In this document: positions 4,271 through 61,720 of the stretch, in pieces
Layout: each line of letters starts with the position of its first letter
Numbering within the stretch: the stretch's first letter is position 1
Assembly (NCBI GenBank): GCA_039961635.1
Contig: JABRWB010000012.1
Location: 22,273-86,272, forward strand
Length of the DNA stretch: 64,000 nucleotides
Reading direction: 5' to 3'
From: a bacterium
GTDB taxonomy: Bacteria; 4484-113; JAGGVC01
Position numbers and translations under genes: made by a program
The notes under the pieces: generated by a model
The model's database searches: none
Told to the model about the DNA's origin: nothing
What the model saw: only the letters and a program-made list of their open reading frames with translations

Positions 4271-4431
4271 GGATTTGCATCGCACTAATTCCAACTGCTG
4301 TTTTATAGGCAAATTTCCGTTGCACTTCAATTTCACGGCATAAAGGCAAATTATCGGATATAATAAAGGTGGCGGCTCGATGGGGTTGTGCCGCCCTATC
4401 GGAGCGCACTTTGCGGGAAAGGGAGACCCGT

Positions 4432-7400
4432 ATGGGCAGGCTTCATTTTCGTTTTGCATATCATCGAAATTCGTTATTGCCGGCGGTTTTCCTTGCAATC
4501 GGCGCCGTCATTGTTTTTGCCAGTTGCCGTGCAGCCGGGCGGCTGTTCGATGCGTCCAATCCGTCGTCGCAACCTCAAAATCTCGTTCCGCCGGCCATTG
4601 AAAACTCGGACCCCGGCGCGCTCTTGGATGCAATATCGGAGATAAGCGAGTTCGAGGTACCGCAAGACGCCGATCCTCAAACCTTCGATATTTTGCGCGC
4701 AAAGCTCATTGAATTTGTTACATCCGCATCCTCCAGAAAATCGGGACTCCGCGAAGCATCCAGCGTGCCAAAGGCAGGATTCGGCGCGGTATCCGATCTC
4801 ATTTACGATGAAGAATCTGGCACGCTATCCTGGACTTATACGAATTGGGGCGATTACGACGGCAGCGGCGAAGTAAATGTGGCCGATATAACGCCGATAG
4901 CCATGTATTTCGGCTCGAAGGTGGAAGACGGCGCCGGATATCCGGAACTTAAAAGGTGGATCGACGGCGACGGCGATGGCGAAATAGGTGTTAGCGATAT
5001 CGTCCCGATCGCTTTGAATTACCTGGGCGAAGTTTGGGGCTACGCCGTGTTCGCGTCAGAAACCCGCGACGGAGCTTTTTCGGCCAAGCTTCCGGGAAGC
5101 GTTGAAACAACGACGGGGGCGGGCATCCCCAAGCGCTGTTCGTTCGAAGTTCCGGCGGAGGCAGGAAATTTTTTCGTGGTAAGGCCGCTCGACGGATCTG
5201 GTAATTATGGAGAGGCGAGCAACATTGCGCCAAAAGGAATCGAGCCGCGGGTTTTGTCCGTAACACCTACTTCGGGCGACCAGGGAAGCGTGGTAACGTT
5301 CGAGGCGCAGGTCGAAGGAAGCGAACCACTCACGTATTTTTGGGATTTCGGAGGCGCCGCACTGCCGAATAATGCGACCGACGCATCGCCTGAAGTCGTG
5401 CTGACTACATATGGTGATTTCCAGGCCACGCTTACTTTATCGAATGCACTCGGCTCCCATGCTTTCGAATTCCCCCTTTCGGTTGTGCCGGTCGGAACCG
5501 CGCCCGAAATACTTTGGGTGCTTCCCGAAACCGCGGTCGAGGGCGAATTCGTGCCGTTTATGCCGTTCGTTACCGGCTCCGCGCCGCTTTTGGCGGAGTG
5601 GGATTTCGGCGAAGGAGCTTCGCCACGGTACTCGAACGAAGCAGCGCCGCTTGTGATATGGGACGAGCCGGGCGATTACAGCGTGCATCTCAAGGTGTCG
5701 AATTATTTCGGCTCTGACGAGGTTGTCATTGTAATTCACATAATTCGCCAAGGAGTATCGCCGGTAGTTTTCGGCGCATCGCCAATAAAGGGGGCAGAAG
5801 GAGAAACGGTCAAGTTCATACCCTTGATTGGCGGCTCGTATCCGATGGACTTCAACTGGCAGTTCGGCGAGGCCGCAACTCCCTCTACAACAACCGACAG
5901 ATTCCCGGTGGTCACGCTGGGTCATCCGGGCAAGTACAGATGCGTTCTGACCGCGTCGAATTACTTCGGTACCGACGAAACGACTTTCGAATTAACTGTC
6001 ACCGACGGCGACGCGTATGGCAACTGGCCCCAGCCAGGCCGCTGGGCGACTCACCGGAGCAGGGCGGATGTGCCGGTTGCAGTGGACAGCGAGAATCCGC
6101 GGGCTGGGAGGATACTCGGATTGCCGGGCAAGGTGGATTCAAGCCCGATTGTGGACGAGTACGGCGCGGTTTATGTCGTTGTGGCGGACGAGTCCGCAGA
6201 TCCCCCGATTGACAGGTTTTGCGCTGCCAAACGGTCAGGCGATATCGAAGTGCTTTTCGAAGCCGTCGACATAATTGACGATCCTGTGATGGACGGCGAA
6301 GGCAGGATATTCCTGAAAGCGGGCGATGGAACGGAGTATTTCCTATATGCGATAGGCCGCGGCTATGGAAACTTGCTTTGGTCCAAGCCTATTGGCGGGG
6401 CGGCGCTTGGATTGGCTTGCACCAAAGATGGAAAAGTCGTTGCAGGAACTTCGATTCCGAACTCGGAACCTTCCGTAAAGTCCTATTGGAATACGGGAGA
6501 ACTCAGATGGTCGATTTCCGCAAAGTCGGAAGGGCCGGGAAGCATCGCTATTGCACCGGACGAAACCGCGTACATTTTTGGCGAAGATGGAATCAAGGCA
6601 TTTGGCTATGATTCGGGCGTTTCATGGTCAAAGTACTGGTCCTATTATGGGGATGGAGGCATATCTATCGGGTTGGGCGGGGAAGTTCTGCTTGCCGCGT
6701 GGCAAGAAAAACTTGTTGCCTTTGATCGTCTCGGCACGGAATTATGGCTAGGCGGGTTGACCGCATGCAGCGGGCCTCCGGCAGTCGGGATTGACGGCTC
6801 CGTATATTATGGAGTGTATCCCAATTACCTGGATTCAATTTCGCAAGAAGGTCAGCAATTGTGGAGCACGGAGTTCACCAATTTGGGGTGGTACGATGGC
6901 GAGGCCAACGGACCATTGATTTCAGCGCCGGCTATGGATTCAAACGGCACGCTGTATTTTCTTTTCTTCGGCCAGATCGATGACCAGAGTCAGGTAGTTT
7001 CCATATCCTCTACCGGAGAATTGCTTTGGGAGTATCCGGTCGGCTCGGTTCAAGTCCACCACAATCCCGCAATCAGCGCCGACGGCAGGCTTTTCGTACC
7101 CGCGGGCGATCTTTACGTTTTCGGCGGAGAAGTGACCGGTCCGCAGGCTGCGCTCGATGTCTCGGAATCAACTGGACAAGTCCCGTTTACGGTGACGCTC
7201 GATGCGTCGGGTAGCACTGACGAAGACGGCTCGTTGCTTACTTACGAATGGGATGTGGAAGGCGACGGCGTTTGGGATTTCAATTCGGGATACGCGCCGA
7301 AAGTCAGGCATACCTACACGCATCCGGGAAGCTATTCGCCGGTAGTCAAAGTGTCCGACGACGGTGAAAGCGATTATGCTCAAGCATCGGTTACTGCATC

Positions 7401-8469
7401 GCCAAGCATGCACGACAAGGAGTGGCACATAACGGTATTGGATTCCGGTTACAATGGCTACTATCGACCATCGATGATTGTGAGTGAGAACAAACCGGGC
7501 ATCGCTATTTCAAAATATGGCGTACTCTTTTATTTGTCGGCATTGGATCCGTATGGACAATCTTGGAATGCGCCAATCGATCCCGGTTTTTCAAATTTCG
7601 GCTTGGTTTTCACTGCATCGGAGATCCTTGGAAAACCTGCAATGGCATTCAGTTCCGACCTGTTCAACGATTACCTGGCTTATGCAACTGCCGAAGACCA
7701 GTCAGGTTTTGTTTGGAGCCCTCCCGTGTCGGTGGATTATCTTATGTATCATGATCCACTTGGTATTTCGTTGCAGGAAGTAAACGGGAATCCTGCAGCT
7801 GCTTTTTCGCGATTTGCGCGTGGCTTTTGGTTCATCCATGCAAACGACCCGGATGGAATATCTTGGGCAGCACCCGTTCAACTTGAGCCCGGGGGAATGA
7901 ACTACTGGGAATACTCGGTATCGTTGGTTGAAGCAGGTGGCAAACCTTGCGTTTTCTACGTCCATGACAACCAGCTAAAGGCAACCGTGGCTCTGGATGC
8001 CAACGGCGACGAATGGAATTCCTCTGTCACTCTCGATGATTTGGAACTAAACTATAGCGAAAACCGTGTAGTGGCAGCGATAGAAGTATCGGGTTGTCCT
8101 GCTGTTGTTTATTTCAATGGAAGCGGAATTTACTATATGCGCGCTTTGGATCCCGAAGGAACAAGTTGGGGCAATAGGGTATTCATAGATAATTCCAATT
8201 CGAATTTTTCGCCTTCGGCAGGAATTATTGGTGGAGTGCCTGCAATTGCATATGCACAACACTTGAATGTGCCAGGGATGTTCGACGGATGCGCGCTCGC
8301 CATCATTCGCGCCACCGATGCGGACGCTACCAGCTGGGGCGAGCCCGAAATCATCGACAGCCTGGGCGACGTTGGCCATTTCGCCTCCATCGCCGAAAAT
8401 TCCGTCGGGCCTTGCATCGCGTATCAGGATCGCACGAAACAGGCGCTGAAGTTCGCAATTTATTATTGA
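4432..8469 (+). CDS. Giant secreted lipoprotein with an N-terminal dockerin-like module, PQQ/BamB-like beta-propeller repeats, a PKD domain and C-terminal repeated propeller-like blades.
   Basis: ORF 4369..8469. Likely start MGRLHF... at 4432 with SD AAGGGAG. Signal peptide ends ...VIVFASC (lipobox). Dockerin-like pair GDYDGSGEVNVADITPIAMYFG / IDGDGDGEIGVSDIVPIALNYL. PKD-like segment VTLDASGSTDEDGSLLTYEWDVEGDGVWDF. Repeated blade-like segments with conserved W/G pattern in the C-terminal half. Confidence 0.75.
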   Translation: MGRLHFRFAYHRNSLLPAVFLAIGAVIVFASCRAAGRLFDASNPSSQPQNLVPPAIENSDPGALLDAISEISEFEVPQDADPQTFDILRAKLIEFVTSASSRKSGLREASSVPKAGFGAVSDLIYDEESGTLSWTYTNWGDYDGSGEVNVADITPIAMYFGSKVEDGAGYPELKRWIDGDGDGEIGVSDIVPIALNYLGEVWGYAVFASETRDGAFSAKLPGSVETTTGAGIPKRCSFEVPAEAGNFFVVRPLDGSGNYGEASNIAPKGIEPRVLSVTPTSGDQGSVVTFEAQVEGSEPLTYFWDFGGAALPNNATDASPEVVLTTYGDFQATLTLSNALGSHAFEFPLSVVPVGTAPEILWVLPETAVEGEFVPFMPFVTGSAPLLAEWDFGEGASPRYSNEAAPLVIWDEPGDYSVHLKVSNYFGSDEVVIVIHIIRQGVSPVVFGASPIKGAEGETVKFIPLIGGSYPMDFNWQFGEAATPSTTTDRFPVVTLGHPGKYRCVLTASNYFGTDETTFELTVTDGDAYGNWPQPGRWATHRSRADVPVAVDSENPRAGRILGLPGKVDSSPIVDEYGAVYVVVADESADPPIDRFCAAKRSGDIEVLFEAVDIIDDPVMDGEGRIFLKAGDGTEYFLYAIGRGYGNLLWSKPIGGAALGLACTKDGKVVAGTSIPNSEPSVKSYWNTGELRWSISAKSEGPGSIAIAPDETAYIFGEDGIKAFGYDSGVSWSKYWSYYGDGGISIGLGGEVLLAAWQEKLVAFDRLGTELWLGGLTACSGPPAVGIDGSVYYGVYPNYLDSISQEGQQLWSTEFTNLGWYDGEANGPLISAPAMDSNGTLYFLFFGQIDDQSQVVSISSTGELLWEYPVGSVQVHHNPAISADGRLFVPAGDLYVFGGEVTGPQAALDVSESTGQVPFTVTLDASGSTDEDGSLLTYEWDVEGDGVWDFNSGYAPKVRHTYTHPGSYSPVVKVSDDGESDYAQASVTASPSMHDKEWHITVLDSGYNGYYRPSMIVSENKPGIAISKYGVLFYLSALDPYGQSWNAPIDPGFSNFGLVFTASEILGKPAMAFSSDLFNDYLAYATAEDQSGFVWSPPVSVDYLMYHDPLGISLQEVNGNPAAAFSRFARGFWFIHANDPDGISWAAPVQLEPGGMNYWEYSVSLVEAGGKPCVFYVHDNQLKATVALDANGDEWNSSVTLDDLELNYSENRVVAAIEVSGCPAVVYFNGSGIYYMRALDPEGTSWGNRVFIDNSNSNFSPSAGIIGGVPAIAYAQHLNVPGMFDGCALAIIRATDADATSWGEPEIIDSLGDVGHFASIAENSVGPCIAYQDRTKQALKFAIYY

Positions 8470-8529: not shown

Positions 8530-8558
8530 TTGACCGCGTTTGCCGCGAGTGCTATACT
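8530..8558 (+). promoter_or_regulatory. Sigma70-like promoter: -35 TTGACC (8530-8535), 17-nt spacer, -10 TATACT (8553-8558), driving the cobalamin riboswitch and btu operon.
   Basis: Near-consensus hexamers with ideal spacing immediately upstream of the riboswitch. Confidence 0.5.
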
Positions 8559-8564
8559 CCTCCC

Positions 8565-8790
8565 GTTCCGTCGGCGGGAAGCCGGTGCAAATCCGGCACG
8601 GACCAGCCACTGTGAGGCGGACTCCCCGGCACTACGCCATTGCCTTCGGGCGAGAAGGCGCCGGGCGGGGTTGAAACCGAGTCAGGAGACCGGGCGGAAA
8701 CTTCAGGGCTTCTCGGAGTAAGCCGCGATGGCTTTCGGCTTTCGCTGTTTCGGCATTGCGATATCTGTATCGGGTGCGCGGCCCGTGCGG
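8565..8790 (+). promoter_or_regulatory. Cobalamin (B12) riboswitch.
   Basis: Conserved core GGGAAGCCGGTGCAAATCCGGCACGGACCAGCCACTGTGA (8575-8615), including the B12 box GCCACTG. Located in the leader of an ABC importer and TonB receptor operon. Confidence 0.75.
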
Positions 8791-8792
8791 TT

Positions 8793-9683
8793 ATGCGCGC
8801 ACGTTCGCATTGCAATGCCCGGATGTGTTCCCGCTCCGAAGCCCGCCGGGGGTGCGGGCGTCTGAGCGCAAGAGCGGCGGTAAACGCAGCGGGAATTTCG
8901 TTCGGATACGACGGCGGGCGCGTGATTGACGGGCTGTCGCTGTCGGTCGCGCCGGGCGAGCTGGTCACGATTAGCGGGCCGAACGGGAGCGGGAAAACGA
9001 CTTTACTGAATCTGCTTTCGGGCGCGCTTGCGCCGGATTCGGGCACGGTCGAGATAAACGGCAAAGCGGTTGCGGATTTCAGCCGCCGGGAGCTTGCAAA
9101 GGCCGTCGCACTGATGCCGCAGTACCTTCCTTATTCGCCCTGGCTGACGGTGCGCGAGATTGTCGCGCTGGGGCGGTATCCGCATATGCCTGCGGCGTTT
9201 TCGCTGTGGGAGCGGGGCGATGACGCATCGGAAGGGAAAGTAGCGGAGGCGATGGAGAAGGCCGGAATTGCGCATCTCGCGGACCGGCTGTCGGGTGAAA
9301 TAAGCGGCGGTGAGCTGCGGCGGACGCACCTGGCACGGGTGCTTGCGCAGGGCGCTTCGATTGTATTGGCGGACGAGCCGACGGGCGATCTGGATTTGCA
9401 GCACGTCGGCGGGATGATAGCGACATTGCGCGGGCTCGCGGAGGGGGGGGCGGCGGTCGCGGCCGTCACGCATGATCTCAACTTCGCGCTGGCGCTCGGT
9501 GGCAGGCTGGTTCTGATGGCGCGCGGGAAAATTGCGGCAGACGGAATCGCGGACGAGATGCTGACGCAAGAGCGGCTTGCGTCGCTTTACGGCGGCGGAT
9601 TCAGAATCGAGGCGCTCGTTTCGGGGGGGAGGGCGGTGCTTCCCGCGTCTTCCGGCCAAGGATTGGAGGCGCATAATGGTTGA
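8793..9683 (+). CDS. btuD: ABC transporter ATP-binding protein (cobalamin/iron-siderophore import type).
   Basis: Walker A GPNGSGKTT, ABC signature LSGGELRR, Walker B ILLADEPT. In-frame ATGs at 8793 and 8823; the track start 8640 (TTG) lies inside the riboswitch. Symbol assigned by operon context only. Confidence 0.85.
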   Translation: MRARSHCNARMCSRSEARRGCGRLSARAAVNAAGISFGYDGGRVIDGLSLSVAPGELVTISGPNGSGKTTLLNLLSGALAPDSGTVEINGKAVADFSRRELAKAVALMPQYLPYSPWLTVREIVALGRYPHMPAAFSLWERGDDASEGKVAEAMEKAGIAHLADRLSGEISGGELRRTHLARVLAQGASIVLADEPTGDLDLQHVGGMIATLRGLAEGGAAVAAVTHDLNFALALGGRLVLMARGKIAADGIADEMLTQERLASLYGGGFRIEALVSGGRAVLPASSGQGLEAHNG

Positions 9684-10713
9684 GAGATACCGCGGACGGC
9701 GGACGGCATACTTTGCGTTTTGCTTCTGGGCGGTTGTGTTCGTCCTGCTGATCGCGCTGCCGTATCTGCGCCAGGCGTACTCGACGTTTTCACGCATACC
9801 CGAAAACAAGAACGCCGGAATCGAATCCCCGGCGGCGAAAAGCGATGCCGAATGGCCTCTGACCAAATTCGACGCACTGGGACGCGAAGTGACATTGGCG
9901 AAACCGCCGGAGCGCATCGTATCGCTCTCTCCCGCGATTACGGAAACGGTATTTGCGCTCGGCGCGGGGGGGAGGCTCGTGGGCCGCTCGGATTTCTGCA
10001 ACTATCCTCCTGAAGTTGCATACATAAAATCAATTGGTGGATTGCTCAACCCGTCGCTTGAAGACATCGTTCTTCTTCAACCGGATCTGGTGTTCGTGCA
10101 GAAGGTCAGCCCGAGGGAAATCGTGGAGAGGCTGGGGGAGGCGGGCGTCGCGGTTTTTGCGGTCGATGAGGCGACATCTCTCAATGGCGTTTTGGAGACG
10201 ATCCGGATAATCGGAATTATGTGCGCAAGCCGCGATAATGCGATTCGGCTTGAATTCGAAAAATCGGCGCTTATGGCGGAGTATAAGTCGCGCAGACGCG
10301 CGCACGCATGGCGCGTGTATTTCGGAGGAGTCGAAGCGCCGTACTACACGGCGGGAGAGGGCACGTTTATAGACGACCTGATTTCACTTGCGGGCGCCAG
10401 GAACATCGCGAGCGGGGAGGGAAGAGAACGGAAATCGTCGCAGGGATGGCCGCAGCTTTCGCCGGAGGAAATAGCCTCCGCGGATCCGGAGGTTATACTC
10501 GTCGGGCATTCTCCGCTCGTCGCGGGGAAAGATGCAACGGATTCCATTCTTTCCGCGGCGCGCAAAAATCCGGCGTTCCGAAACACCTCCGCCGTGAAAT
10601 ACGGACGGATTTGCGTAATAGATCAGGACGAGCTGCTGCGTCCGGGACCGCGCATTTTCAACGCGCTCGAAAAGTTCTCCGCATATCTCGACGGACTGGA
10701 GGATGTCGAGTGA
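9676..10713 (+). CDS. btuF: Periplasmic substrate-binding protein, BtuF/FhuD class (cluster A-2).
   Basis: ATG 9676 preceded by GGAGG; the track start 9577 is a 5' over-extension. N-terminal TM/signal FAFCFWAVVFVLLIAL. PBP motifs IVSLSPAITETVFALGAGGRLVGRSDFCNYP and LQPDLVFV. Overlaps the btuD stop by 8 nt. Confidence 0.85.
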   Translation: MVERYRGRRTAYFAFCFWAVVFVLLIALPYLRQAYSTFSRIPENKNAGIESPAAKSDAEWPLTKFDALGREVTLAKPPERIVSLSPAITETVFALGAGGRLVGRSDFCNYPPEVAYIKSIGGLLNPSLEDIVLLQPDLVFVQKVSPREIVERLGEAGVAVFAVDEATSLNGVLETIRIIGIMCASRDNAIRLEFEKSALMAEYKSRRRAHAWRVYFGGVEAPYYTAGEGTFIDDLISLAGARNIASGEGRERKSSQGWPQLSPEEIASADPEVILVGHSPLVAGKDATDSILSAARKNPAFRNTSAVKYGRICVIDQDELLRPGPRIFNALEKFSAYLDGLEDVE

Positions 10714-11741
10714 CCTCCCCCCCTATTAAAGAGAACGCGAATTCCAGAGATGCGAGGCTTGTGCGGCTTCTTGCAATCGCGCTCACCCTTCTCGCACTCG
10801 GATTGGTTCTTTCGTTGGCCGCGGGAAAGGAGTATGTCAATCCGATATCGCTGTTTACGGGCGCATATTCCGATGACGCCCACCGTAAGGCGCTTTCGAC
10901 GATAGTATGGTCGCTAAGACTTCCCCGCGCGCTCGGCGCGGGGCTTATCGGAATGTCGCTCGCGCTTTCGGGGCTTTTGTTACAGGCGTATTTCCGCAAT
11001 CCGCTTGCCGATCCGTTCATCTTGGGAGTGTCCAGCGGCGCGGCGCTCGGCGCGGCCGTAAAAATTATTTTCTTGCCGAATATTCCGATTCCCCTTCCGG
11101 TGTTCGCGCTCGCGGGCGGGTTCGCGCTTGTGTCCGGAGTATGGCTTATCGCCAGAGGCGTACGGGGAGATGAGACCGTTACGCTGCTGCTTTCCGGAGT
11201 CGCCTTATCGCTTCTTGCGGGAAGCCTTTTGAGCGTGCTCGTTTTGTGGGGCAGGCCTGGCGAAGTGGGGCTTGTGATGCGTTGGCTGATGGGCTCGCTC
11301 GCGGGCGTCGGATATCGCGAGGTCGCGTGGCTTGCCGCGGGCGCGGTTGCGGGGCTTGCGATTTCGCTTGCGCTTTCGCGCGAACTCAATGCGATTCTTT
11401 TGGGCAAAACCGTCGCGCAGAGCATCGGCGTGGACGTGCGCGCGGTGCGGCTGTGGGTCGTGGGCGCGGCGACCGCGCTGGCCGCGCTGGCGGTTTCCGC
11501 CGCGGGAATCGTGGGTTTCGTCGGCCTGGTCGTACCGCATATCGCTCGGTTGATCGTGGGGGGGGGCGCGCGGCGGCTCGTTCCGGTGGCCGCCGCGATC
11601 GGAGCATCGGCGCTTGTGTGGTGCGACTTGGGCGCGCGCGCGGCTCTCCCCTCGGGCGAGCTGCCGATAGGAGCGGCGACCGCGATTATGGGCGTTCCGT
11701 TTTTTCTTTGGCTGATGCGCAGGGGGAGGTATTTGGGATGA
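10710..11741 (+). CDS. btuC: ABC transporter permease, FecCD/BtuC family.
   Basis: GTG 10710 overlaps the btuF stop (GTGA). FecCD motifs LGAGLIGMSLALSGLLLQAYFRNPLADPFILGVSSGAALGAAV. Multiple TM helices. The track start 10308 is an over-extension. Confidence 0.85.
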   Translation: MTSPPIKENANSRDARLVRLLAIALTLLALGLVLSLAAGKEYVNPISLFTGAYSDDAHRKALSTIVWSLRLPRALGAGLIGMSLALSGLLLQAYFRNPLADPFILGVSSGAALGAAVKIIFLPNIPIPLPVFALAGGFALVSGVWLIARGVRGDETVTLLLSGVALSLLAGSLLSVLVLWGRPGEVGLVMRWLMGSLAGVGYREVAWLAAGAVAGLAISLALSRELNAILLGKTVAQSIGVDVRAVRLWVVGAATALAALAVSAAGIVGFVGLVVPHIARLIVGGGARRLVPVAAAIGASALVWCDLGARAALPSGELPIGAATAIMGVPFFLWLMRRGRYLG

Positions 11742-13642
11742 TTTTCCGGCTGCTTGCCGCTATTTGGTTGATACTTTCGCTAAATGCCGCGTGGATCGGG
11801 GCGGCCGAATGCCAAGATGAAGGTTCGGGCGGAAATTCCGAATCTGCCGCCGAAGCCGATTCGGGGCGGGACGATTCCGAAGAAATCGAAGTCGGCGAAG
11901 TGGAGGTTGAAGGCGAGAAACCCGCGTCCGCGGAATCGCTGCCCGGCGAGGATTTTTTGTTGATTGACATCGAGGATTTCTTGATTCCCGGAGAGTCGCT
12001 CGGCGATGTCCTTGATACGCTCGGGGGCGTCGAAGTGCGCGGCCTGGGGGGGGGACTGGATATGACGACGTTTTCGATCCGCGGCGCGGGCGCGCACCAA
12101 ACCGATATTCTGCTTGAAGGCGCGCCGCTTTCGCCCGCGACCGGCGGCGTTTTCGACCTCTCGCTGTTGCCGGCTTGGTTTGTGCAATCCGCTCTCGTCA
12201 CCCGCGGCCCAGGCTCGATAGGCGGGAAAGCGCTCGCGGGAGAACTGGATTTGCGCCTGGCGAACGATACAGGAACTTCATTTTGCTCCGGCCGCGGCAG
12301 TTTCGGGACTTATTCCGCGATGATGAGGGGCGGATGGAACGCAGGAAATTCGAATTTTGTCATGGCCATTGGCTATGATTCTGCGGACGGCGATTTCACC
12401 TACGGGCGGCGCGACGGGAAAACCTACACGCGCTCGAACAACGAACGCGAGCGCGTTGCGGTCGCGCTGTCTTGGCAAACCAAAAACGCCGCGCGGGACG
12501 ATTCCGCATTTTTGCTGGCCGCCGACCGCTCCGGCGGTGTGCCGGGGCTGTCGGAATTTCCGACGCCTTCGGCGCACCAGGACGACACGCTTTTTCTCGC
12601 CGGTTTTTCCTCGACGGACAAATCGTTTGAAAAGGGCGAGTTGACGTGGACCGGCTACTCGCGCGTCCAACACACGGGCTTCGGCGATCCTTCGCCTTAT
12701 CTTGGAAACGCGGTGTATGCTGATCAATCCGAATACGCCGCCGGCGCCGCGGTATCGTTCAGGCGTCCGTCGGGGGGGGGTATCTTCGGTGCAAAAATAT
12801 CTATCGATGGAGCGGTTCTTTCCGACGATTCCTACGGGAATCCTGAACGGAGAACAATCGCCGCGACTCTATGGCGCGAGTTTTACGCCGGCAAGGCGGC
12901 TTTTTCCGCCGCACTGTCCGGGGAGGCGGCGAGCGACGGCCCCGTCGGCTGGCGCGGCAAACTGGGAATGGAGCGTAAACTGGGTGCGGGATTGTCATTA
13001 GCGGGCAGCGCGGCGCGCTCGTTCAGACGGCCCGATTTCGCGGAGCTTTATTATCCCGAATCGGGATTCATCGGCGGCAACCCGGAGCTTTTCCCGGAAA
13101 CCGGATACACGTTCGATTTCGGCCCGCGATTTCGAGGAAGCAAGTTGGATGCTTCACTTGTCGGATTTATCCACCGGTTTTCGGAATCGATCGAATTCGT
13201 GCCCGTATCCGCATACCGGCTTCGCGCGGAAAACACGGGGGGGGTGCGAAGCCGGGGCGTATCGCTGGACATACAAGCGGCTCCCGCGGACGGATGGAAG
13301 CTGGACGGCTCATTCACATTCCTTGACGCGGAATACCTGGACGGCGGACTTCCGCTTGCGGGGAGGTCTCCGCGCAAATGGAGTGTCGGCATATCGCGCG
13401 AGTCCGCCAACTGGCAAGTGTCGGCTTCATTCCTTCACCGCTCTTCCACGCCCGTCGACAGATTCGGCTCGCTGTATGTGGGCGCGGCCGGCGATTTGTC
13501 CGCGGCTCTTGTTTTCAGGCCCGATGATTCCTGGCGGATTTCGGTGTCGGGATTCAACCTGCTCGACGAAGATATCCGGGACAGCCTGGATTTCCCCCGG
13601 CCCGGCCGCTCGTTTTTTCTTTCGGTAAATCGCGAGGTGTAG
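11738..13642 (+). CDS. btuB: TonB-dependent outer-membrane receptor, BtuB-like.
   Basis: ATG 11738 overlaps the btuC stop (ATGA) with SD GGGGGAGG. Signal peptide MIFRLLAAIWLILSLNAAWIGAA. Plug-domain motifs VEVRGLGGGLDMTTFSIRGAGAHQTDILLEGAPLSP and VTRGPGSIGGKALAGELDL. The barrel C-terminus ends ...FFLSVNREV, not the usual aromatic residue. Confidence 0.8.
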   Translation: MIFRLLAAIWLILSLNAAWIGAAECQDEGSGGNSESAAEADSGRDDSEEIEVGEVEVEGEKPASAESLPGEDFLLIDIEDFLIPGESLGDVLDTLGGVEVRGLGGGLDMTTFSIRGAGAHQTDILLEGAPLSPATGGVFDLSLLPAWFVQSALVTRGPGSIGGKALAGELDLRLANDTGTSFCSGRGSFGTYSAMMRGGWNAGNSNFVMAIGYDSADGDFTYGRRDGKTYTRSNNERERVAVALSWQTKNAARDDSAFLLAADRSGGVPGLSEFPTPSAHQDDTLFLAGFSSTDKSFEKGELTWTGYSRVQHTGFGDPSPYLGNAVYADQSEYAAGAAVSFRRPSGGGIFGAKISIDGAVLSDDSYGNPERRTIAATLWREFYAGKAAFSAALSGEAASDGPVGWRGKLGMERKLGAGLSLAGSAARSFRRPDFAELYYPESGFIGGNPELFPETGYTFDFGPRFRGSKLDASLVGFIHRFSESIEFVPVSAYRLRAENTGGVRSRGVSLDIQAAPADGWKLDGSFTFLDAEYLDGGLPLAGRSPRKWSVGISRESANWQVSASFLHRSSTPVDRFGSLYVGAAGDLSAALVFRPDDSWRISVSGFNLLDEDIRDSLDFPRPGRSFFLSVNREV

Positions 13643-13690
13643 TGTCCGCATCTTTCCAGATGCAAAGTGAATAATCTCGGAGGTTAGGAA

Positions 13691-14914
13691 ATGAAGAAGA
13701 ATGTTGTTATCAATATGTTCATTGCAACGGCGGCGTCGCTGGCCATACTGATTGCATCCGGATGCGGAGGCGGCTCCGGTTCCGCAAATCCGCCGCTGCC
13801 GCCCGGAACCAACAAGGTCACTCCGGCCGAGCTTCAGGCCGCGCTTAAAAAGGGGTTTTTCACGACCGGAAGCGCGCCGTCCAGATTCGAGGCGCGGGGC
13901 GCCGAAATATACACGCTCAACTCACTTTCGAACACGATGACCGTCAATTCCGCGTACGACGGCGCCGCGGTGCGCACGATTTCGTTTCCGGTCGGCGCCG
14001 GGCCGTTCGATTTGGAATGGGTCGGAGATGCCTGTTACATCTGTGCTAACGGCACGAACGCGGTTTACCGCTACCGGGCCGGGCAGGACGCTGTTGACGG
14101 CGAGTCTGTTTCGCTCGCATTAGGTGGTCTTGAAGCGCTTGCGTACATCGGCCCGGGAGAAATGGCAGCGTACGGCGGAAAACTGTACGTCCCCATTTCG
14201 GGGATAGTTTCGTTTGGTGACCCATCGAGCGGAATAGAAGCCGAGTACGCGCCCGGAAGAATCGCTGTGTTAGACCTTGCGGCTTTCGCATTCGAGCGTT
14301 TTATAAATGTTCCGTTTGTGAATCCGACCGCGGCCTACACATCGCCCGACGGAATTATCTATTTCGTTTGCACCGGCGAAAGCCAGTTCACCGCGGAATA
14401 CGAGGCCTATGCCGGCAGCGAGGGCGGAATTGTCGCGTTCAATCCAGCATCCGGCCAGGTCGTTTATTCTCTGTCGCTCGGCGAAACGCTGCCGGGCACG
14501 ATTATTCTGGTCAATCAGGATGTCGCCTACGTGGGAAGCAACCTGAAGGCAGAGGTGTACCGGGTGCGGCTGGATACGGGCATCGTTCAGCGCGGCCCGG
14601 ACAACCCTATCGTTCTCACGCAGGAATTCAGCTTCGTGTCGGGATTTGCAGGTCTTCCCGGCCTCGGCGTTCTGGCGGGAAGCTTCAACACCGACGAGGT
14701 GTTCTTCATCGATCCGAACGACGACGGCGTCGGCAAATCACCCTTTACGCAGCCGTTCGATTTCGGAGAAAGCGATACTTTCTTCGGCGGCGTCCAGGAT
14801 GTCTTGTATTTCCGGGAAAATGAAAAGCACAAGATTTTCGTGTTGCAGGGAATCGCCAACAAGGTCGGTGCGGTTGACCTTACGCAACTGTGGAACAGGA
14901 TTCGGCTTGAATAG
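13691..14914 (+). CDS. Surface lipoprotein, beta-propeller-like, hypothetical; last gene of the btu cluster.
   Basis: Lipobox LAILIASGC followed by a GGGSGS linker. Repeated blade-like segments (YTL..., VYRYRA, LYVPISG, IYFVCTG, VVYSLSLG, AYVGSN, VYRVRL). SD GGAGG before ATG 13691. Confidence 0.6.
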   Translation: MKKNVVINMFIATAASLAILIASGCGGGSGSANPPLPPGTNKVTPAELQAALKKGFFTTGSAPSRFEARGAEIYTLNSLSNTMTVNSAYDGAAVRTISFPVGAGPFDLEWVGDACYICANGTNAVYRYRAGQDAVDGESVSLALGGLEALAYIGPGEMAAYGGKLYVPISGIVSFGDPSSGIEAEYAPGRIAVLDLAAFAFERFINVPFVNPTAAYTSPDGIIYFVCTGESQFTAEYEAYAGSEGGIVAFNPASGQVVYSLSLGETLPGTIILVNQDVAYVGSNLKAEVYRVRLDTGIVQRGPDNPIVLTQEFSFVSGFAGLPGLGVLAGSFNTDEVFFIDPNDDGVGKSPFTQPFDFGESDTFFGGVQDVLYFRENEKHKIFVLQGIANKVGAVDLTQLWNRIRLE

Positions 14915-14988: not shown

Positions 14989-15462
14989 ATGGCCGAATTA
15001 TTCGTGAAGTACGCGCCGCTTTGGGCAGCGCTGTTTTCATGGGTTCTCGCCCAGTGCATAAAGCTGGTGATTTCGCTCGTTCAGGAAGGGCGTATCAACG
15101 TCGCCAAGCTTATCGACACGGGAGGCATGCCCTCTTCGCACAGCGCGCTCGTCGCGAGCATTTGCACCAGCGTGGGGCTGATCCGCGGCTGGGACAGCAT
15201 CGAGTTCGCTATCACAGCTGTGTTCACCGCAATCGTTTTGTACGACGCCACCGGAATCAGGCGCAGCGCCGGGGAGCATGCGGCGGCGCTGAACGACATC
15301 ATTCCGCAGCTTCTTGCGGGCAAGTTCTTAAAGCCCGACACCAAGTTCCGCGAGGAATACCGGGAGCTTTTGGGCCACAATCCCGCGGAAGTCGTGGTGG
15401 GCTCGATACTGGGCGCAATCGTCACATTGCTGTTTCTCTACGGCTACGGGGTGGTTCGATAA
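14989..15462 (+). CDS. DUF212 / divergent PAP2 (YuiD-like) membrane protein.
   Basis: Hallmark GGMPSSHSALV motif and hydrophobic helices; about 157 aa. Confidence 0.75.
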   Translation: MAELFVKYAPLWAALFSWVLAQCIKLVISLVQEGRINVAKLIDTGGMPSSHSALVASICTSVGLIRGWDSIEFAITAVFTAIVLYDATGIRRSAGEHAAALNDIIPQLLAGKFLKPDTKFREEYRELLGHNPAEVVVGSILGAIVTLLFLYGYGVVR

Positions 15463-15495
15463 TCCGTGCGCGGGTATCTGCGCCGCCCGATTGAA

Positions 15496-16272
15496 ATGAA
15501 TGTGGACAATCTGGCGCAACTCCTGGTTACGAACGGGGCCGCGGATGATTTGAAGGCGGCCCGAATGCTGATTCGCAGGGGCAGGGTGACGGTAAACGGA
15601 AAAAACGCGTACGACGAGGAAATGCCGGTCAATCCGGATGCCGCAATAAAGGCTCTTTGCAAACCGGGCGAGTGGGCGAGCCGCGGAGGATTGAAGCTGG
15701 AAGCGGCACTGCTGCATTTCGGAGTATCGCCCGCGGACAAGGTCTGCCTGGATCTAGGCTGCTCGACGGGGGGGTTCACCGACGTGCTGCTGGCTTACGG
15801 CGCGGCGAAAGTGCATGCTGTTGACGTGGGATACGGAGTTTTGGACTGGGTGTTGCGAAATCATCCCAGGGTGGCCGTTCACGAAAGGACAAATGCAAGG
15901 TTTCTTACGGCTGAACAGGTGGGCGAATCGGTTGATTTGATCACGGCAGATCTCAATCACATTTCGCTTGCGGTTGCGCTGCCCGCTCCGGCGAAGCTAT
16001 TGGTCGAAGGAGGCGCGGTACTGGCGCTGGTCAAACCCCAATTCGAAATCCCGAAACAGTGGTGCGTCCAGCCGGATTGGCAAGGCGGAGTGGTCAAGGG
16101 CGATGCGCTTAGAAAACGGATTCTGGATTACTCGGTGGAAAGGCTGGAACGCGAGGGGTTGTCTTGTCAAGGGCTGTTCGAATGTCCGGTTGCCGGCCAC
16201 AAAGGAAACCGCGAATATTTCGCGCTTCTCAAGCCCGCTTTGGCTCATGCTGGAAAACCCCCGGTGATATGA
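15496..16272 (+). CDS. tlyA: rRNA (cytidine-2'-O)-methyltransferase TlyA (hemolysin A family).
   Basis: S4 RNA-binding start MNVDNLAQLLVTNGAADDLKAARMLIRRGRVTVNG, then an FtsJ-type MTase with LDLGCSTGGFTDVLL. The track start 15466 is also possible. Confidence 0.85.
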   Translation: MNVDNLAQLLVTNGAADDLKAARMLIRRGRVTVNGKNAYDEEMPVNPDAAIKALCKPGEWASRGGLKLEAALLHFGVSPADKVCLDLGCSTGGFTDVLLAYGAAKVHAVDVGYGVLDWVLRNHPRVAVHERTNARFLTAEQVGESVDLITADLNHISLAVALPAPAKLLVEGGAVLALVKPQFEIPKQWCVQPDWQGGVVKGDALRKRILDYSVERLEREGLSCQGLFECPVAGHKGNREYFALLKPALAHAGKPPVI

Positions 16273-16276
16273 TTCA

Positions 16277-17197
16277 ATGGCCGGGGCGAATGCCCGGACA
16301 GGCAAGTTGAGAAAAACATCCAAAATCGGCGTAGTCCTTCATCCGTTCAGGGTGAAGCGCAGCTTCATCGAGCGGAAGGTGTTTCCCGTGCTGGAACGCC
16401 ACGGGTTCGCGCCTGAATTTCTGTCGCCAACGCTGAACGAAACGAATCCGCCGCGGCCCGCCGCGCTGCCGAAAGATCACGGCCTGTCGTATTTGATGGT
16501 ATTCGGCGGCGACGGAACATATTTGGGAGCATCCAGGCTGGCCGCGCGCGCGGGGATTCCCATTATCGGCGTCGAAATGGGCAAAATGGGCTTTCTCTGT
16601 CAGGCGAAGCTCGAGGAACTGGAGCCTCTTGCCGCGTTGCTGGCCAGCGGCGGTTACGAGACCGAGAAACGGATACTGCTTCAAGGCTCGATTATCCGCG
16701 GGGGAGCGAAGGCCGCAAGCGACATAGCGCTCAACGACGTGGTTATAGGCAACGCGACAATCCCGCGGATGCTGGATTTGGATTGTTACATTGACGACAA
16801 TTTTCTGGTCAGCTATTACGCGGACGGCTTGATCGTTTCCACCCCCACCGGCAGCACCGCGTACGCGATGGCGGCGGGCGGCCCCATTATCGATCCGACG
16901 CTGCGTACGATAATGGTTACGCCCATTTGCGCGCACTCGCTTTACATCCGGCCTCTGGTCGTGCCCGAAGACAAAACCGTGCGCATCCTGCCGGAGCCGG
17001 GCGGCCCTCCGTTGATGGCGACATTCGACGGACAGGTTTTTTACAACCTGGAAGAGGGCGACGAAGTAAGGATCTCCCGCTATTCGAAGCCGCTAAAAAT
17101 GATCAAACTGCGCGATTTCAACTTTATCAACACGTTAATGAAGAAGTTTAAATGGGGCTTCAAGTACTCAAACGAATATACTTCGGGCGGAGCCTGA
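16277..17197 (+). CDS. nadK: NAD+ kinase.
   Basis: Motifs GGDGT, NDVVI, DGLIVSTPTGSTAYAMAAGGPI. The conserved tlyA-nadK adjacency is seen in many bacteria. Confidence 0.9.
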   Translation: MAGANARTGKLRKTSKIGVVLHPFRVKRSFIERKVFPVLERHGFAPEFLSPTLNETNPPRPAALPKDHGLSYLMVFGGDGTYLGASRLAARAGIPIIGVEMGKMGFLCQAKLEELEPLAALLASGGYETEKRILLQGSIIRGGAKAASDIALNDVVIGNATIPRMLDLDCYIDDNFLVSYYADGLIVSTPTGSTAYAMAAGGPIIDPTLRTIMVTPICAHSLYIRPLVVPEDKTVRILPEPGGPPLMATFDGQVFYNLEEGDEVRISRYSKPLKMIKLRDFNFINTLMKKFKWGFKYSNEYTSGGA

Positions 17198-19456: not shown

Positions 19457-21667
19457 TCATCTGTTCCGGCTGCCGGCAGCCGATTGCGCGCCTTCGGCGG
19501 GCGGAGGGATTTTTTGGCTGGAATCCTGCGGAGGCGCCTGCTGGCCGGACTCCGGGGGCGGAGCCTGCTGGACATTCGATTGATCTCCGGTGTTGACCGG
19601 TGCCTGCTGAGGAGCGGCGGTCGCATCGCCGGTGACGGGGGGTGTGGGCGCGCCGCGCGGAACGACTTTGCCGCTTCCGTCTGGGCCGGGTACAACCGGC
19701 CCCATCTCGCCGCCGCCGTAAGTCGGAGCTGGAGCCCCTGGCGTGACGGGACCCTGGCCGGCGGGCGCCGGGGTTCCGGCCGTGACCGGACCGCCTTCAA
19801 CCGGCGCGCCGGGAGCGGCTTCCCCGGCTCCAGCAGCGGGCGTTGCGGGAGTCTCGGGCGCCGGCGGCTGTTTCAGTTCAGTCTGAAGCTTTGGCAGGCC
19901 GGATGCCGGCGGCGGAAGCTGATTCTCCCCGGCGCTGTCCTGGATGTATCTGAAATTCGGATCGTCTGTAAGTCCGAATCCGAGATCTTCAATGTCTCCC
20001 GGAATCGGCGCACGAGCTTCGAATGTGAGAGTGGCCGCCTGGCCGCTGCCCCGCACAGTCCGTATGATGTCGTCAAGCGAAATAGCGATTGTGACCAATC
20101 CGCTGGATTTGTCCGGCTGGGCATAAAACATCGTTGCATCGCGCCCGCCGTCAAACATAGAGCCGATTTTGACTTTTGTAAGGCTGAAGTTGTTCACGTC
20201 GAACGTTACTCCAAACAGTCCGCGGCGAAAATCGGGGATATTGCGGACATCGAGTGAAACTTCCAACGAATCCCCGGGATCCATTCCGGACTTGGGCTTA
20301 TCATATTTCAATTCCGCCGCCGGTTGAGGTGTTTTCACCTCCAAATCCAGCACCGTGGGCTCCGTCAGAGGAACTCCTTTCGGATTTACGATTATCAGGC
20401 TGACCGTGACGGATTCCGCGGTATCGGGAATGAACCGGACGAACGGCTCCGAAAGCGTCAATGTGACCGTCGGCTTGTCCTTGACTTCAACGGCTTCGGC
20501 TTCCTTCGCGGCAATTTCGTCGGTGATCTGCTTTTGAATGTCGTCAATCAGCTTTTCGCCTGCATCCCGCTTGCCCGGCATCGTGAATTCCCAAGGCGTC
20601 GGCCAGGAGTTTCGCTCCTTCAAACCCGCGCCGGTGTCGTCCGAAGCCGTTTCGGGGGCGACGGAATCGGAGTCATTTGCATCTTCTCCGCTTGCTGCAT
20701 CGGTTTCGGTCGAAGGTGTTTCCTCTGCAGGTGCTATTTCCGCTTCGGCGGAAGCCGCCTCGCCGGATTCCATCCCGTCCGCGGGCCGCTCAAGTTCCGT
20801 TGACCCGGATTCAATTTCGGTATCGGATGCCGTTTCATCCGCAGTATCATCTGCGGAGTCAACCGCTTCGACGGAATTCACCACGCCATCGTCCTGAAGC
20901 GCCAATACCGCATACTTGATTTGGCTGTAGTTGCCGAACAGGCTTGCGAAAATCGTACTGCGTTCGTTCCTCGATGCGACGGTGACCGGCGGCGCAGCAG
21001 GCTCGGTTCTGGTCGGCTCGGCCGGTTTCGGCGCAAGCTGCGGCGGCGGCACCGGCTCGCCGGTTTTGAACTGCTGGTTGCCGCCGCTGGGCGCGGCCGG
21101 TTTCTGGTCCATAACTTTGTCCGGCGATACCGTTGCGGGGATGGTTTTGCCATCCACCGTAGCCGGAGCGCCGCCGGCCGGAACCGGAGCGCCCGTATCG
21201 GTTCCCGCGGGCGCCGCGGGAGTTTCGCTTTCTGGTGCGGACGAAGCCGGCGGGACTGCAAGCGCTTTCAGCCTTTCGCGATCCGATTCGTTGACCGGCA
21301 AAAGCTTGCCGCCGGTCACGTGCCATTCGTAGCGGATGTCTTTTTTGTCGGGGTTGTCCACTATGGCGTAAACGTTGTAAGGCTGATTAACCTCGACCTG
21401 GCCGACCTCGAAGCTGATTTGCATAATCGTGACCGGCCGCTCGGGCGCGCGCTGGCCGGATGTCTCGGACTGCCCAGAGGGATTGCCGTAACTCTGCGAG
21501 TTTCGGTTCGGCGTATTCATGTTTTGGTTGTAACTCGGATTCGTCTGAAGGTTGCTTCCGGACGAGGTGCAGGCCGAACCGTACGCGACCGCGGCCGAAA
21601 ACGCCAGAATCAATGCGGAACCAGCGAACTTCGTCGCATGCTCCCTGAAATAATTCCTGATATGCAT
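19457..21667 (-). CDS. Proline/alanine-rich secreted lipoprotein with a cohesin-like beta-sandwich segment.
   Basis: Probable start MHIRNYFREHATKFAGSALILAFSAAVAYGSAC (signal plus lipobox) at 21667; the track ORF extends to 21793. Long low-complexity P/A/T/E-rich tracts. One globular segment (LEVSLDVRNIPDFRRGLFGVTFDVNNFSLTKVKIGSMFDGG) resembles the cohesin-like segment of the 41194..41844 protein. Confidence 0.6.
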   Translation of the reverse strand: MHIRNYFREHATKFAGSALILAFSAAVAYGSACTSSGSNLQTNPSYNQNMNTPNRNSQSYGNPSGQSETSGQRAPERPVTIMQISFEVGQVEVNQPYNVYAIVDNPDKKDIRYEWHVTGGKLLPVNESDRERLKALAVPPASSAPESETPAAPAGTDTGAPVPAGGAPATVDGKTIPATVSPDKVMDQKPAAPSGGNQQFKTGEPVPPPQLAPKPAEPTRTEPAAPPVTVASRNERSTIFASLFGNYSQIKYAVLALQDDGVVNSVEAVDSADDTADETASDTEIESGSTELERPADGMESGEAASAEAEIAPAEETPSTETDAASGEDANDSDSVAPETASDDTGAGLKERNSWPTPWEFTMPGKRDAGEKLIDDIQKQITDEIAAKEAEAVEVKDKPTVTLTLSEPFVRFIPDTAESVTVSLIIVNPKGVPLTEPTVLDLEVKTPQPAAELKYDKPKSGMDPGDSLEVSLDVRNIPDFRRGLFGVTFDVNNFSLTKVKIGSMFDGGRDATMFYAQPDKSSGLVTIAISLDDIIRTVRGSGQAATLTFEARAPIPGDIEDLGFGLTDDPNFRYIQDSAGENQLPPPASGLPKLQTELKQPPAPETPATPAAGAGEAAPGAPVEGGPVTAGTPAPAGQGPVTPGAPAPTYGGGEMGPVVPGPDGSGKVVPRGAPTPPVTGDATAAPQQAPVNTGDQSNVQQAPPPESGQQAPPQDSSQKIPPPAEGAQSAAGSRNR

Positions 21668-21836
21668 CACTTGCGCCCAGCTCCTTGCCTTGAAATGGCA
21701 AACATTTTCAAAGACGCACCGGCGGGCGCGCTGTTCACGTCCGCGCCGTGCATCCGGATAGATTCTACCCCATAATTTGCCGTCTGGGAACATCCCGCCG
21801 GACCGAAATTCGGCGCGTCCGTCAGCAAGCTTTCAA

Positions 21837-61361: not shown

Positions 61362-61375
61362 TGGTACAAACACAA

Positions 61376-61720
61376 TGGAGGTGGGGGGAATCGAACCCCC
61401 GTCCGAACGGGCACCCGGGACGGCGTCTACGGCGGTAGTCTGCGGATTAATCTTAACGCCCTTCGGAAGCCGCAAACGACACCTCCGGGCGGGCAGCCCT
61501 TAATCTTTCGCGGATGCCGGGCGTTCTCCGCGGCATCCCCTGGATCTGGCCGCGCATCCGAGCCCCAGGGGCCCGGCGCGGTGCGCGGTCGTCGCTATGT
61601 TAAGCGGCGAGAGCGAAATCGCGGTTGGCGATTATGTTTTGCTGGGGTTGTTGACCCGGCGTCCAGCCGCCGGGCGTCGCAGCCGATCGTGCATCCCATC
61701 CGTCGAATCCATACACCCCC
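61376..61720 (-). ncRNA. ssrA: Transfer-messenger RNA (tmRNA, ssrA).
   Basis: Minus-strand 5' end GGGGGTGTATGGATTCGACGG... (complement of 61720 downward). Tag ORF ...GCCAACCGCGATTTCGCTCTCGCCGCTTAA = ANRDFALAA* (around 61601-61630). 3' tRNA-like end GGACGGGGGTTCGATTCCCCCCACCTCCA with encoded CCA (complement of 61376-61378). Confidence 0.85.

Follow-up and report, generated by a model that had tools for sequence, protein, structure and literature searches.

The subject of this report is a 407-residue propeller lipoprotein encoded at the end of a five-gene operon for vitamin B12 uptake, located in a 64,000-nucleotide stretch of contig JABRWB010000012.1 (the window; all positions refer to it). 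The operon is headed by a cobalamin riboswitch and comprises, on one strand, btuD-like, btuF-like, btuC-like and btuB-like genes followed by the gene of the lipoprotein (Table 1). The neighbouring genes overlap by 4-8 nucleotides or stand close to each other (the start codon of the btuF-like gene overlaps the stop codon of the ATP-binding cassette (ABC) ATPase gene), and at least the last four are preceded by GGAGG-type Shine-Dalgarno sites. Because of these overlaps, short gaps and Shine-Dalgarno sites, the five genes are one translationally coupled unit. An earlier reading made from the sequence only had put the lipoprotein gene directly 3' of btuB, behind a 48-nucleotide gap and a GGAGG site, and inside the riboswitch-controlled unit. 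All of this can be read from the sequence: the transporter gene stops at 13640-13642, a sequence scan of the gap found no terminator-like hairpin, and the riboswitch precedes a row of coupled genes of the same strand. The only promoter-like site between 8300 and 15600 is a sigma-70-like match at the edge of the riboswitch; 2.4 sites are expected in shuffled sequence.

The closest sequence matches of the transporter in the PDB are the three BtuB proteins of Bacteroides thetaiotaomicron (from E 1.5e-13 for BtuB2 to 9e-13 for BtuB3), followed by Escherichia coli BtuB (E about 4e-8). Its top NCBIfam model is TonB-B12 (TIGR01779), with a score far under the curated cut-off. Since the solved BtuBs are its best relatives and TonB-B12 is its best NCBIfam model, the name "btuB-like" is justified, in agreement with the earlier naming of this neighbour as btuB. 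Between its signal peptide and plug the transporter carries an acidic low-complexity stretch, DEGSGGNSESAAEADSGRDDSEEIEVGEVEVEGEK (window 11810-11920, residues ~25-62). Comparable acidic stretches are found across the transporter family, with an EI-D/E-x-GE-I/V-x-V segment in close relatives, and this stretch may contain the TonB box.

The lipoprotein itself starts as MKKNVVINMFIATAASLAILIASG-C25-GGGSGSANPPLPPGT: a signal peptide is followed by a lipobox and by a tether rich in Gly, Ser and Pro. A lipobox and a Gly/Ser linker had been described before for this open reading frame. The lipobox cysteine is conserved in at least 90% of the aligned family members, both in a 26-sequence and in a 38-sequence alignment. 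The mature protein is acidic, with a computed net charge of -19 and an isoelectric point (pI) of 4.4. Its gene shares one reading frame with the transporter gene, the two start codons being 1953 nucleotides apart with two in-frame stops between them. A word-indexed search, which returned nine proteins, gave eight orthologues of 404-423 amino acids (aa) with 53-58% identity to the lipoprotein, and an identical protein is deposited as hypothetical protein HRF49_02045. The open reading frame is therefore a real gene and not a chance one, since it has eight orthologues of the same length and a confident structural model.

Table 1. Positions of the features in the window (ORF, open reading frame; pLDDT, predicted local distance difference test)
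Feature	Position	Strand	Basis and remarks
Sigma-70-like promoter match TTGACC-17-TATACT, TG extended	8530..8558	+	5' edge of riboswitch; weak evidence
Cobalamin riboswitch aptamer RF00174, operon leader	8547..8712	+	cmscan 85.5 bits, E 1.1e-19, full model 1-189
btuD-like ABC ATPase	~8823..9683	+	PF00005, E 1.2e-31; start ATG 8793 or 8823
btuF-like periplasmic binding protein	9676..10713	+	PF01497 Peripla_BP_2, E 5e-32; GGAGG before ATG 9676
btuC-like permease	10710..11741	+	PF01032 FecCD, E 3e-83; GGAGG before GTG 10710; 4-nucleotide overlap
BtuB-like TonB-dependent transporter, 634 aa	11738..13642	+	Plug and TonB_dep_Rec_b-barrel; GGAGG before ATG 11738; 4-nucleotide overlap
Shine-Dalgarno GGAGG of lipoprotein gene	13679..13683	+	Read from sequence; ATG 7 nucleotides further on
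Propeller lipoprotein gene	13691..14914	+	407-aa ORF, ATG start, orthologues, model; last gene of operon
Signal peptide and lipobox (LIASG-C25)	13691..13765	+	Sequence; Cys codon 13763-13765; helix 2-24 in model
Flexible Gly/Ser/Pro-rich tether, residues 26-44	13766..13822	+	pLDDT <50 at residues 24-32, low to ~40
Predicted seven-bladed beta-propeller domain, residues ~52-400	13844..14890	+	AlphaFold2 model
Family motif T228-G-E-x-Q-F233	14372..14389	+	Family alignments; G229 is the sole residue invariant superfamily-wide
Family signature S331-F-N-T-D-E336, blade 6	14681..14698	+	Invariant in alignments A1 and A3
tmRNA gene, standard	61373-61720	-	RF00023, 130 bits

Fold of the lipoprotein and its relation to BtuG

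The AlphaFold2 model of the lipoprotein, made from a nine-sequence alignment, is confident (mean pLDDT 90.3, predicted template modelling score 0.85). It consists of a helix at residues 2-24, a disordered tether at about 24-44, a short helix at 45-50 and seven four-stranded blades at about 52-400, the last of which is closed by the N-terminal strand. The beta-propeller that had been proposed from the letters thus has a confident seven-bladed model behind it. The comparison with BtuG structures that had been suggested along with it was done by Foldseek, scoring 3Di states plus residues. Among solved structures, the cobalamin-bound BtuG1, BtuG2 and BtuG3 of B. thetaiotaomicron took the first four ranks and some twelve of the top 20, at E 2e-13 to 1e-11 and 10-16% identity, with template modelling scores of only about 0.5. 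One of these entries, 8PTF, is titled "BtuG2 in complex with cyanocobalamin" in the fold library. According to the preprint of its depositors, 8PTD and 8PTF are BtuG1 with cyanocobalamin and cobinamide, and the chain sequence of both matches BT1490-type (BtuG1) proteins.

The lipoprotein has no significant match to Pfam, NCBIfam or PDB sequences. PQQ_2 (PF13360) reaches 13.1 bits against a cut-off of 27.6 (E 0.073), the BamB model TIGR03300 11.5 bits against a cut-off of 285, and the YncE-like model PF21783 is not matched at E<=0.1, so that any likeness to YncE is at the fold level only. A BamB-like identity was rejected: both models are far under their cut-offs, BamB is an eight-bladed propeller as opposed to the seven blades of the model, and the context is that of B12. 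A YncE-like identity was rejected as well, on the unmet PF21783 threshold and the same context; YncE/YVTN propellers (E. coli YncE 3VGZ, Leptospira Lp49 3BWS, archaeal S-layer 1L0Q) are not tied to B12 loci.

Profile comparisons do point to a relation with BtuG, which is Pfam PF16819/DUF5074 (PMC13398666). When a hidden Markov model (HMM) of the 26-member family was run against the PDB, the BtuG1 chains (8PTD/8PTF, E 8.5e-4) were the best natural full-length propeller; YncE and Lp49 were not matched. Alignment of the family by hhalign with an alignment of the BtuG1 clade (PF16819; 18 sequences of at most 267 aa, assembled from gene fragments and seeded by a BtuG1 fragment) gave a probability of 97.1%, E 7.5e-11 and a score of 86 over 218 columns. 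This match is register-specific, because the blade-shifted alternatives score only 51 and 36; generic YVTN propellers, taken as controls, score 41-68 against either family. In the best register blade 1 of the family pairs with BtuG blade 2, and the long third blade (GKLYVPISG...GRIAVLDLAAF) pairs with the NSGG-containing blade of BtuG (GKLYVSNSGG...TVSVIDITTF). In the alignment, the TGExQF motif falls on T-R244-G-E-D-V-E249 of BtuG1, a segment with two B12 contacts (10.1101/2024.02.16.580637). A circular permutation, in which the C-terminal blade of the family would correspond to the N-terminal "EGxF" blade of BtuG, was tried and rejected, since that blade gave a weak match (probability 3.7%), and to BtuG blade 2.

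The sequence-only reading had seen no obvious similarity to BtuG and had therefore thought of a convergent or undescribed accessory. Convergence goes too far, in view of the remote homology indicated by both profile methods. Because Foldseek puts BtuG first and the profiles match at such strength, we read the lipoprotein as one of the YncE/YVTN-like propellers, very remotely related to BtuG as the nearest characterised family, and not as a convergent invention. By its sequence it falls outside PF16819, and neither can it be called demonstrably convergent.

Several properties of the family would suit a binding face of the BtuG kind. The invariant polar motifs TGExQF and SFNTDE, together with an Asn at the end of strand B in several blades, would by the YVTN-type blade architecture lie on the channel-surrounding loops of one face, the same face on which BtuG binds B12. 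A superfamily alignment of 38 sequences shows F332 and D335 of the SFNTDE signature conserved to at least 90%. Acidity is common to all 26 members of the family that were examined (net charge -9 to -48, pI 4.0-4.9). This character matches the negatively charged face by which BtuG2 draws the positively charged corrinoid (PMC10404256).

The likeness to BtuG1, BtuG2 and BtuG3 (PDB 8PTD, 8PTF, 8BMZ, 8OKV, 8BLW, 8BMX) thus extends over the N-terminal lipid anchor, the seven-bladed propeller, the acidic character, the place next to a btuB gene in a cobalamin-riboswitch locus, the rank in the Foldseek search and the probable remote homology seen by profiles. On the other hand, the window family fails PF16819, has 12-16% identity to BtuG with most of the named B12 contacts apparently unconserved, is shifted by one blade, and in the window protein carries a Gly-rich tether in place of the acidic Bacteroidota export signal. 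The gene order btuD-F-C-B-lipoprotein with its Shine-Dalgarno sites differs as well, and the related genomes are labelled Planctomycetes, whereas BtuG has been reported as Bacteroidetes-exclusive (PMC6143338).

BtuK1 and BtuK2 (a PKD domain plus a seven-bladed propeller; PDB 9S6C, 4R5O) are also propeller lipoproteins of a riboswitch-controlled B12 locus, and BtuK1 of B. thetaiotaomicron binds cyanocobalamin (PMC13616437). Contrastingly, the propeller of the window protein begins at residue ~52, with no N-terminal domain or PKD match before it. The entry 4R5O lies outside the top 50 Foldseek matches, and the BtuK genes are not a btuB-adjacent partner. Most core-family members are longer than the window protein, about 460-495 aa, and carry between lipobox and propeller an extra segment of ~70-110 residues that it does not have (L012, L013, L019, L021-L023, L025 and L026). 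In the ~460-aa members this segment recalls the two-domain layout of BtuK and by analogy may be a small immunoglobulin-like domain. The lipoprotein lids and co-receptors of other TonB-dependent transporters (SusD, XusB and HmuY of Bacteroidota, TbpB/HpuA of Neisseria) share with our protein the gene position by the transporter and the proposed surface capture, but they have other folds and other substrates.

Genomic contexts of the family

When 1.84 billion cluster representatives were searched exhaustively with HMMER, 194 matched the family at E<=1e-3, of which 51 passed E<=1e-10. Of the representatives listed, 109 have matches that span 180 or more residues of the query; a crude pattern detects a lipobox-like motif in 73 of them. 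Counted as clusters at 50% identity, those with matches of this length number about 100. Degenerate-pattern scans of genomes and metagenomes found 6 and 9 loci, and a word-indexed search with the 26-sequence alignment gave 16 proteins, with P0028 as the sole new family member. DNA was recovered for about 25 distinct family loci.

All of these loci tie the family to B12 uptake, at identities to the query as low as 26% and beyond that in subgroups where only the C-terminal half is matched. The Rfam scan detected a cobalamin riboswitch in every locus with sufficient upstream DNA, 14 of 14 (the window, L001, L004, L008, L012, L013, L014, L022, L023, L026, L027, L028, L029 and L030), and in L001, L004, L008, L012, L013, L014, L022, L023 and L026 it sits at the position orthologous to that of the window. 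The sequence-only reading had named homologues in unrelated, non-B12 contexts as the observation that would refute it. None was found among the loci examined; the one locus with no transporter, L029, has a riboswitch of its own.

In the core family (26-58% identity, 400-495 aa) the gene of a TonB-dependent transporter stands immediately upstream in every locus, with a small gap and frequently with overlap of the two open reading frames. Every core locus with at least 5 kb of upstream DNA shows the order of ABC ATPase, periplasmic binding protein, FecCD permease, TonB-dependent transporter and lipoprotein. The flanks are not so constant: a trio of DUF212, FtsJ and NAD kinase genes lies downstream in the close relatives, stands upstream of the riboswitch, in divergent orientation, in L012, L022 and L023 and is absent in L025 and L026, while in L013 and L014 a tRNA gene follows the lipoprotein. 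Since the flanks vary between the subgroups, the five-gene block is the conserved unit.

The distant subgroups, where the match to the query is confined to its C-terminal 200-250 residues, have operon layouts that differ from the core. In L027 the riboswitch is followed by the transporter, the propeller lipoprotein, two more lipoproteins and then the binding protein, FecCD permease and ABC ATPase genes; L028 likewise has riboswitch, transporter, propeller lipoprotein and two more lipoproteins. In L030 an open reading frame of 771 aa (L030:2235-4550), which has no Pfam match, is inserted between the transporter and the propeller lipoprotein, and binding protein, permease and ATPase genes follow. 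The locus of P0044 has the order transporter, propeller lipoprotein, binding protein, permease, ATPase; here we refer to gene order only, as this locus stands outside the riboswitch scan. The additional lipoproteins of L027 (4393-7118) and L028 (9580-11907) stand behind one cobalamin riboswitch and have no Pfam match, and the first of them is common to the two loci (E 2e-60). These two operons may encode a multi-lipoprotein B12 relay outside the Bacteroidota.

In all surveyed loci except L029 the propeller gene adjoins the gene of a TonB-dependent transporter or is one gene away from it. The member at L029 (P0036, L029:2713-4425) is a propeller lipoprotein of 473 aa whose gene immediately follows a cobalamin riboswitch of its own (69 bits). 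No TonB-dependent transporter is present among the called genes of this 5.7-kb contig, the two genes at the contig ends being outside the Pfam scan. The neighbours of P0036 are a protein kinase and a methyltransferase.

Probable corrinoid capture and its alternatives

Taken together, it is very probable that the lipoprotein has a role in B12 acquisition. Our reading is that this riboswitch-controlled propeller lipoprotein captures corrinoids for the btuB-like transporter in the manner of BtuG, and we give it a probability of about 0.6. Direct binding of corrinoids by the protein is rather probable, and its placement as a surface-exposed lid has somewhat less than even odds. At low intracellular B12 the riboswitch would permit expression of the operon. 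The lipoprotein would then be produced together with the BtuB-like transporter, and Cys25 would hold it in the outer membrane on a flexible tether of ~20 residues. Corrinoids would be captured on the conserved acidic loop face of the propeller and passed to the barrel of the transporter, and the BtuF/BtuCD-like proteins would complete the import, a scheme which is that of BtuG with BtuB in Bacteroides. The gene, its lipobox and fold, the operon with its riboswitch and the strict, deeply conserved tie to B12 transport loci come from the analysis itself. Corrinoid binding, the binding face, the exposure at the surface and not to the periplasm, and the complex with the transporter are what we infer in this scheme.

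The following observations weigh against BtuG-like capture. PF16819 is matched neither by the window protein at E<=0.1 nor by any of the 26 family members at E<=0.01, whereas the BtuG1 fragment and its relatives, used as control, do match it. The fold is generic, with 1558 chains passing E 1e-3 in Foldseek. Three Bacteroidota-type YVTN proteins of the type-IX-secretion kind score higher to both families, and BtuG1 is closer to an archaeal S-layer propeller (E 4.5e-9) than to BtuG2/3 (E ~1e-3), so the ranking among YVTN-type propellers at the sequence level is soft. The B12 contacts of BtuG are known to be E55, G56, F58, Q93, N107, S131, R135, W149, S195, Q219 and W272 in BtuG2 and F60, R141, R244, E249 and Y290 in BtuG1 (10.1101/2024.02.16.580637). 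In the profile alignment, with a register that is uncertain at such divergence, R141 of BtuG1 corresponds to F106, Q139 to G104, R244 to T228 and E249 to F233. Under the same uncertainty of register, only Asn/Ser64 and Asn77 sit at positions equivalent to Gln93 and Asn107 of BtuG2, the contacts of which were mapped through their spacing relative to BtuG1 only. After the lipid cysteine the window protein has GGGSGS, as opposed to the acidic CDDMEDKP of the BtuG1 relatives, which is the Bacteroidota surface-export signal. As that signal is phylum-specific, its absence bears on membership in BtuG and not on localisation. Every relative comes from an uncultured organism. The conservation of context in the core family could largely reflect vertical inheritance in one lineage; therefore much weight lies on the distant layouts and on the stand-alone riboswitch-gene unit of L029. 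Finally, we know of no surface export of lipoproteins in this lineage.

It is possible, but unlikely, that the protein is an accessory of B12 uptake which does not bind free corrinoids by its own, serving the transporter instead as a structural lid or stabiliser, or as the receptor that docks onto it a corrinoid carrier protein of another organism or of the host. The linkage to the operon and the riboswitch would fit this equally well, and so would the contact residues of BtuG, which are apparently mostly unconserved; moreover, BtuK2, a propeller lipoprotein of the Bacteroides B12 locus, does not bind cobamides from solution (PMC13616437). However, the nearest solved relatives, by Foldseek as well as by HMM, bind B12 directly. 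Additionally, the stand-alone member of L029 under its own riboswitch argues for a function that can be performed alone, such as binding.

A little less likely again is a lipoprotein that faces the periplasm, from the inner leaflet of the outer membrane or from the inner membrane, and there relays B12 to the BtuF-like protein or retains it. The leaflet is not specified by the lipobox alone, the Bacteroidota-type export signal is missing, and no surface export machinery is known to us for the lineage. Yet the nearest solved relatives are surface lids, and the operon already encodes a Peripla_BP_2 binder, so that a purely periplasmic second binder would probably be redundant. To our knowledge, no such relay exists in any B12 system of the BtuB-BtuF-BtuCD type, which counts against it too.

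An extracytoplasmic enzyme of the lactonase, SGL or Vgb-lyase kind, acting on corrinoids or a related substrate and remodelling or releasing corrinoids before uptake, is improbable. Some family members do match Lactonase, SGL, Vgb_lyase, Arylesterase and Phytase-like models (best E 1e-6 to 1e-2, none shown at the Pfam gathering score), and the polar motifs TGExQF and SFNTDE are invariant. The matches span single blades, however, and are confined to a few members, among which the window protein is not; no pattern of catalytic metal binding was identified, and we know of no extracellular enzyme that remodels corrinoids. The enzyme assignment was rejected on the unmet thresholds and the B12 context. 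That the gene is an unrelated passenger which came to stand behind a transporter gene by chance, for instance a BamB-like assembly factor or a generic surface protein, is very improbable: its generic fold and the weak PQQ_2/BamB similarity (E 0.073) would allow it, but the BamB models are far under threshold and the riboswitch linkage persists over operon layouts, flanks, identities under 30% and a stand-alone riboswitch-gene unit.

BtuG-like capture would extend a known mechanism to other lineages. BtuG has been described as "exclusively found in the Bacteroidetes" (PMC6143338). Price and Arkin (2023) found the homologues of transporter lids that keep conserved proximity to be virtually all from Bacteroidota and posed the reason as a question (10.1101/2023.03.17.533168). 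A review of September 2026 names two proteins with a reach beyond the Bacteroidota, BtuH (in three Firmicutes) and BtuJ/DUF4465 (in eight clades), and no others (PMC13616437). In the searchable literature, outside which most subscription journals fall, propeller lipoproteins of B12 riboswitches appear in Bacteroides papers only. The earlier statement that nothing equivalent is described outside this phylum agrees with these sources, and the family is undescribed in that literature and carries no Pfam or NCBIfam annotation. For other lineages, our in silico data support B12 uptake of the BtuB-BtuG type with the help of lipoproteins from a separate, very divergent family; this is an extension of a known mechanism and not a new one. 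More tentatively, and with the odds rather against it, the window protein would belong to a large unannotated superfamily of cobalamin-riboswitch propeller lipoproteins, spread over several non-Bacteroidota lineages and operon layouts, with BtuG as a divergent branch of one ancient corrinoid-capture module.

Few microbes make B12 and most need it, so that the machinery of its capture shapes microbial communities, and the lipoprotein-assisted form, BtuG on BtuB, is at present regarded as peculiar to the Bacteroidota. If our reading is true, the BtuB-BtuG paradigm reaches environmental bacteria and the family offers new candidate ultra-tight B12 binders as reagents. Genes that are now "hypothetical protein" could then be annotated for B12 scavenging in metagenomes, and the surface export of lipoproteins outside the Bacteroidota would become directly testable. 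If the wider superfamily exists, lids on TonB-dependent B12 transporters, and hence the surface export of lipoproteins, are not a speciality of the Bacteroidota. Planctomycetes-like bacteria and further diderms would have such lids as well, and some would carry multi-lipoprotein relays, as in L027 and L028 with three lipoproteins after the transporter.

Host and surroundings of the window

Four of the six species-representative genomes with relatives are labelled Planctomycetia/Planctomycetales by two submitters, and the other two are labelled "bacterium". GGAGG Shine-Dalgarno use is unusual for Bacteroidota. The strong Shine-Dalgarno sites and the absent Bacteroidota export signal argue against a Bacteroidota host. 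The window is chromosomal, with genes of DnaE, HypF, RmuC and CstA, a transfer-messenger RNA (tmRNA) gene and a G+C content of 58.6%.

Downstream of the operon and outside it are genes of a DUF212 protein (divergent PAP2; 14989..15462), a TlyA/FtsJ-type methyltransferase and a NAD kinase (window 14989-17197). A Pro/Ala/Gly-rich open reading frame of 778 aa (window 19457-21793, minus strand) has no Pfam match, lies opposite to overlapping plus-strand open reading frames and is a putative gene only. A PKD-domain protein of 1366 aa (window 4369-8469, plus strand) ends just 5' of the riboswitch, and a second very large PKD-domain protein, of 1110 aa, is encoded at 54551-57883 on the same strand.

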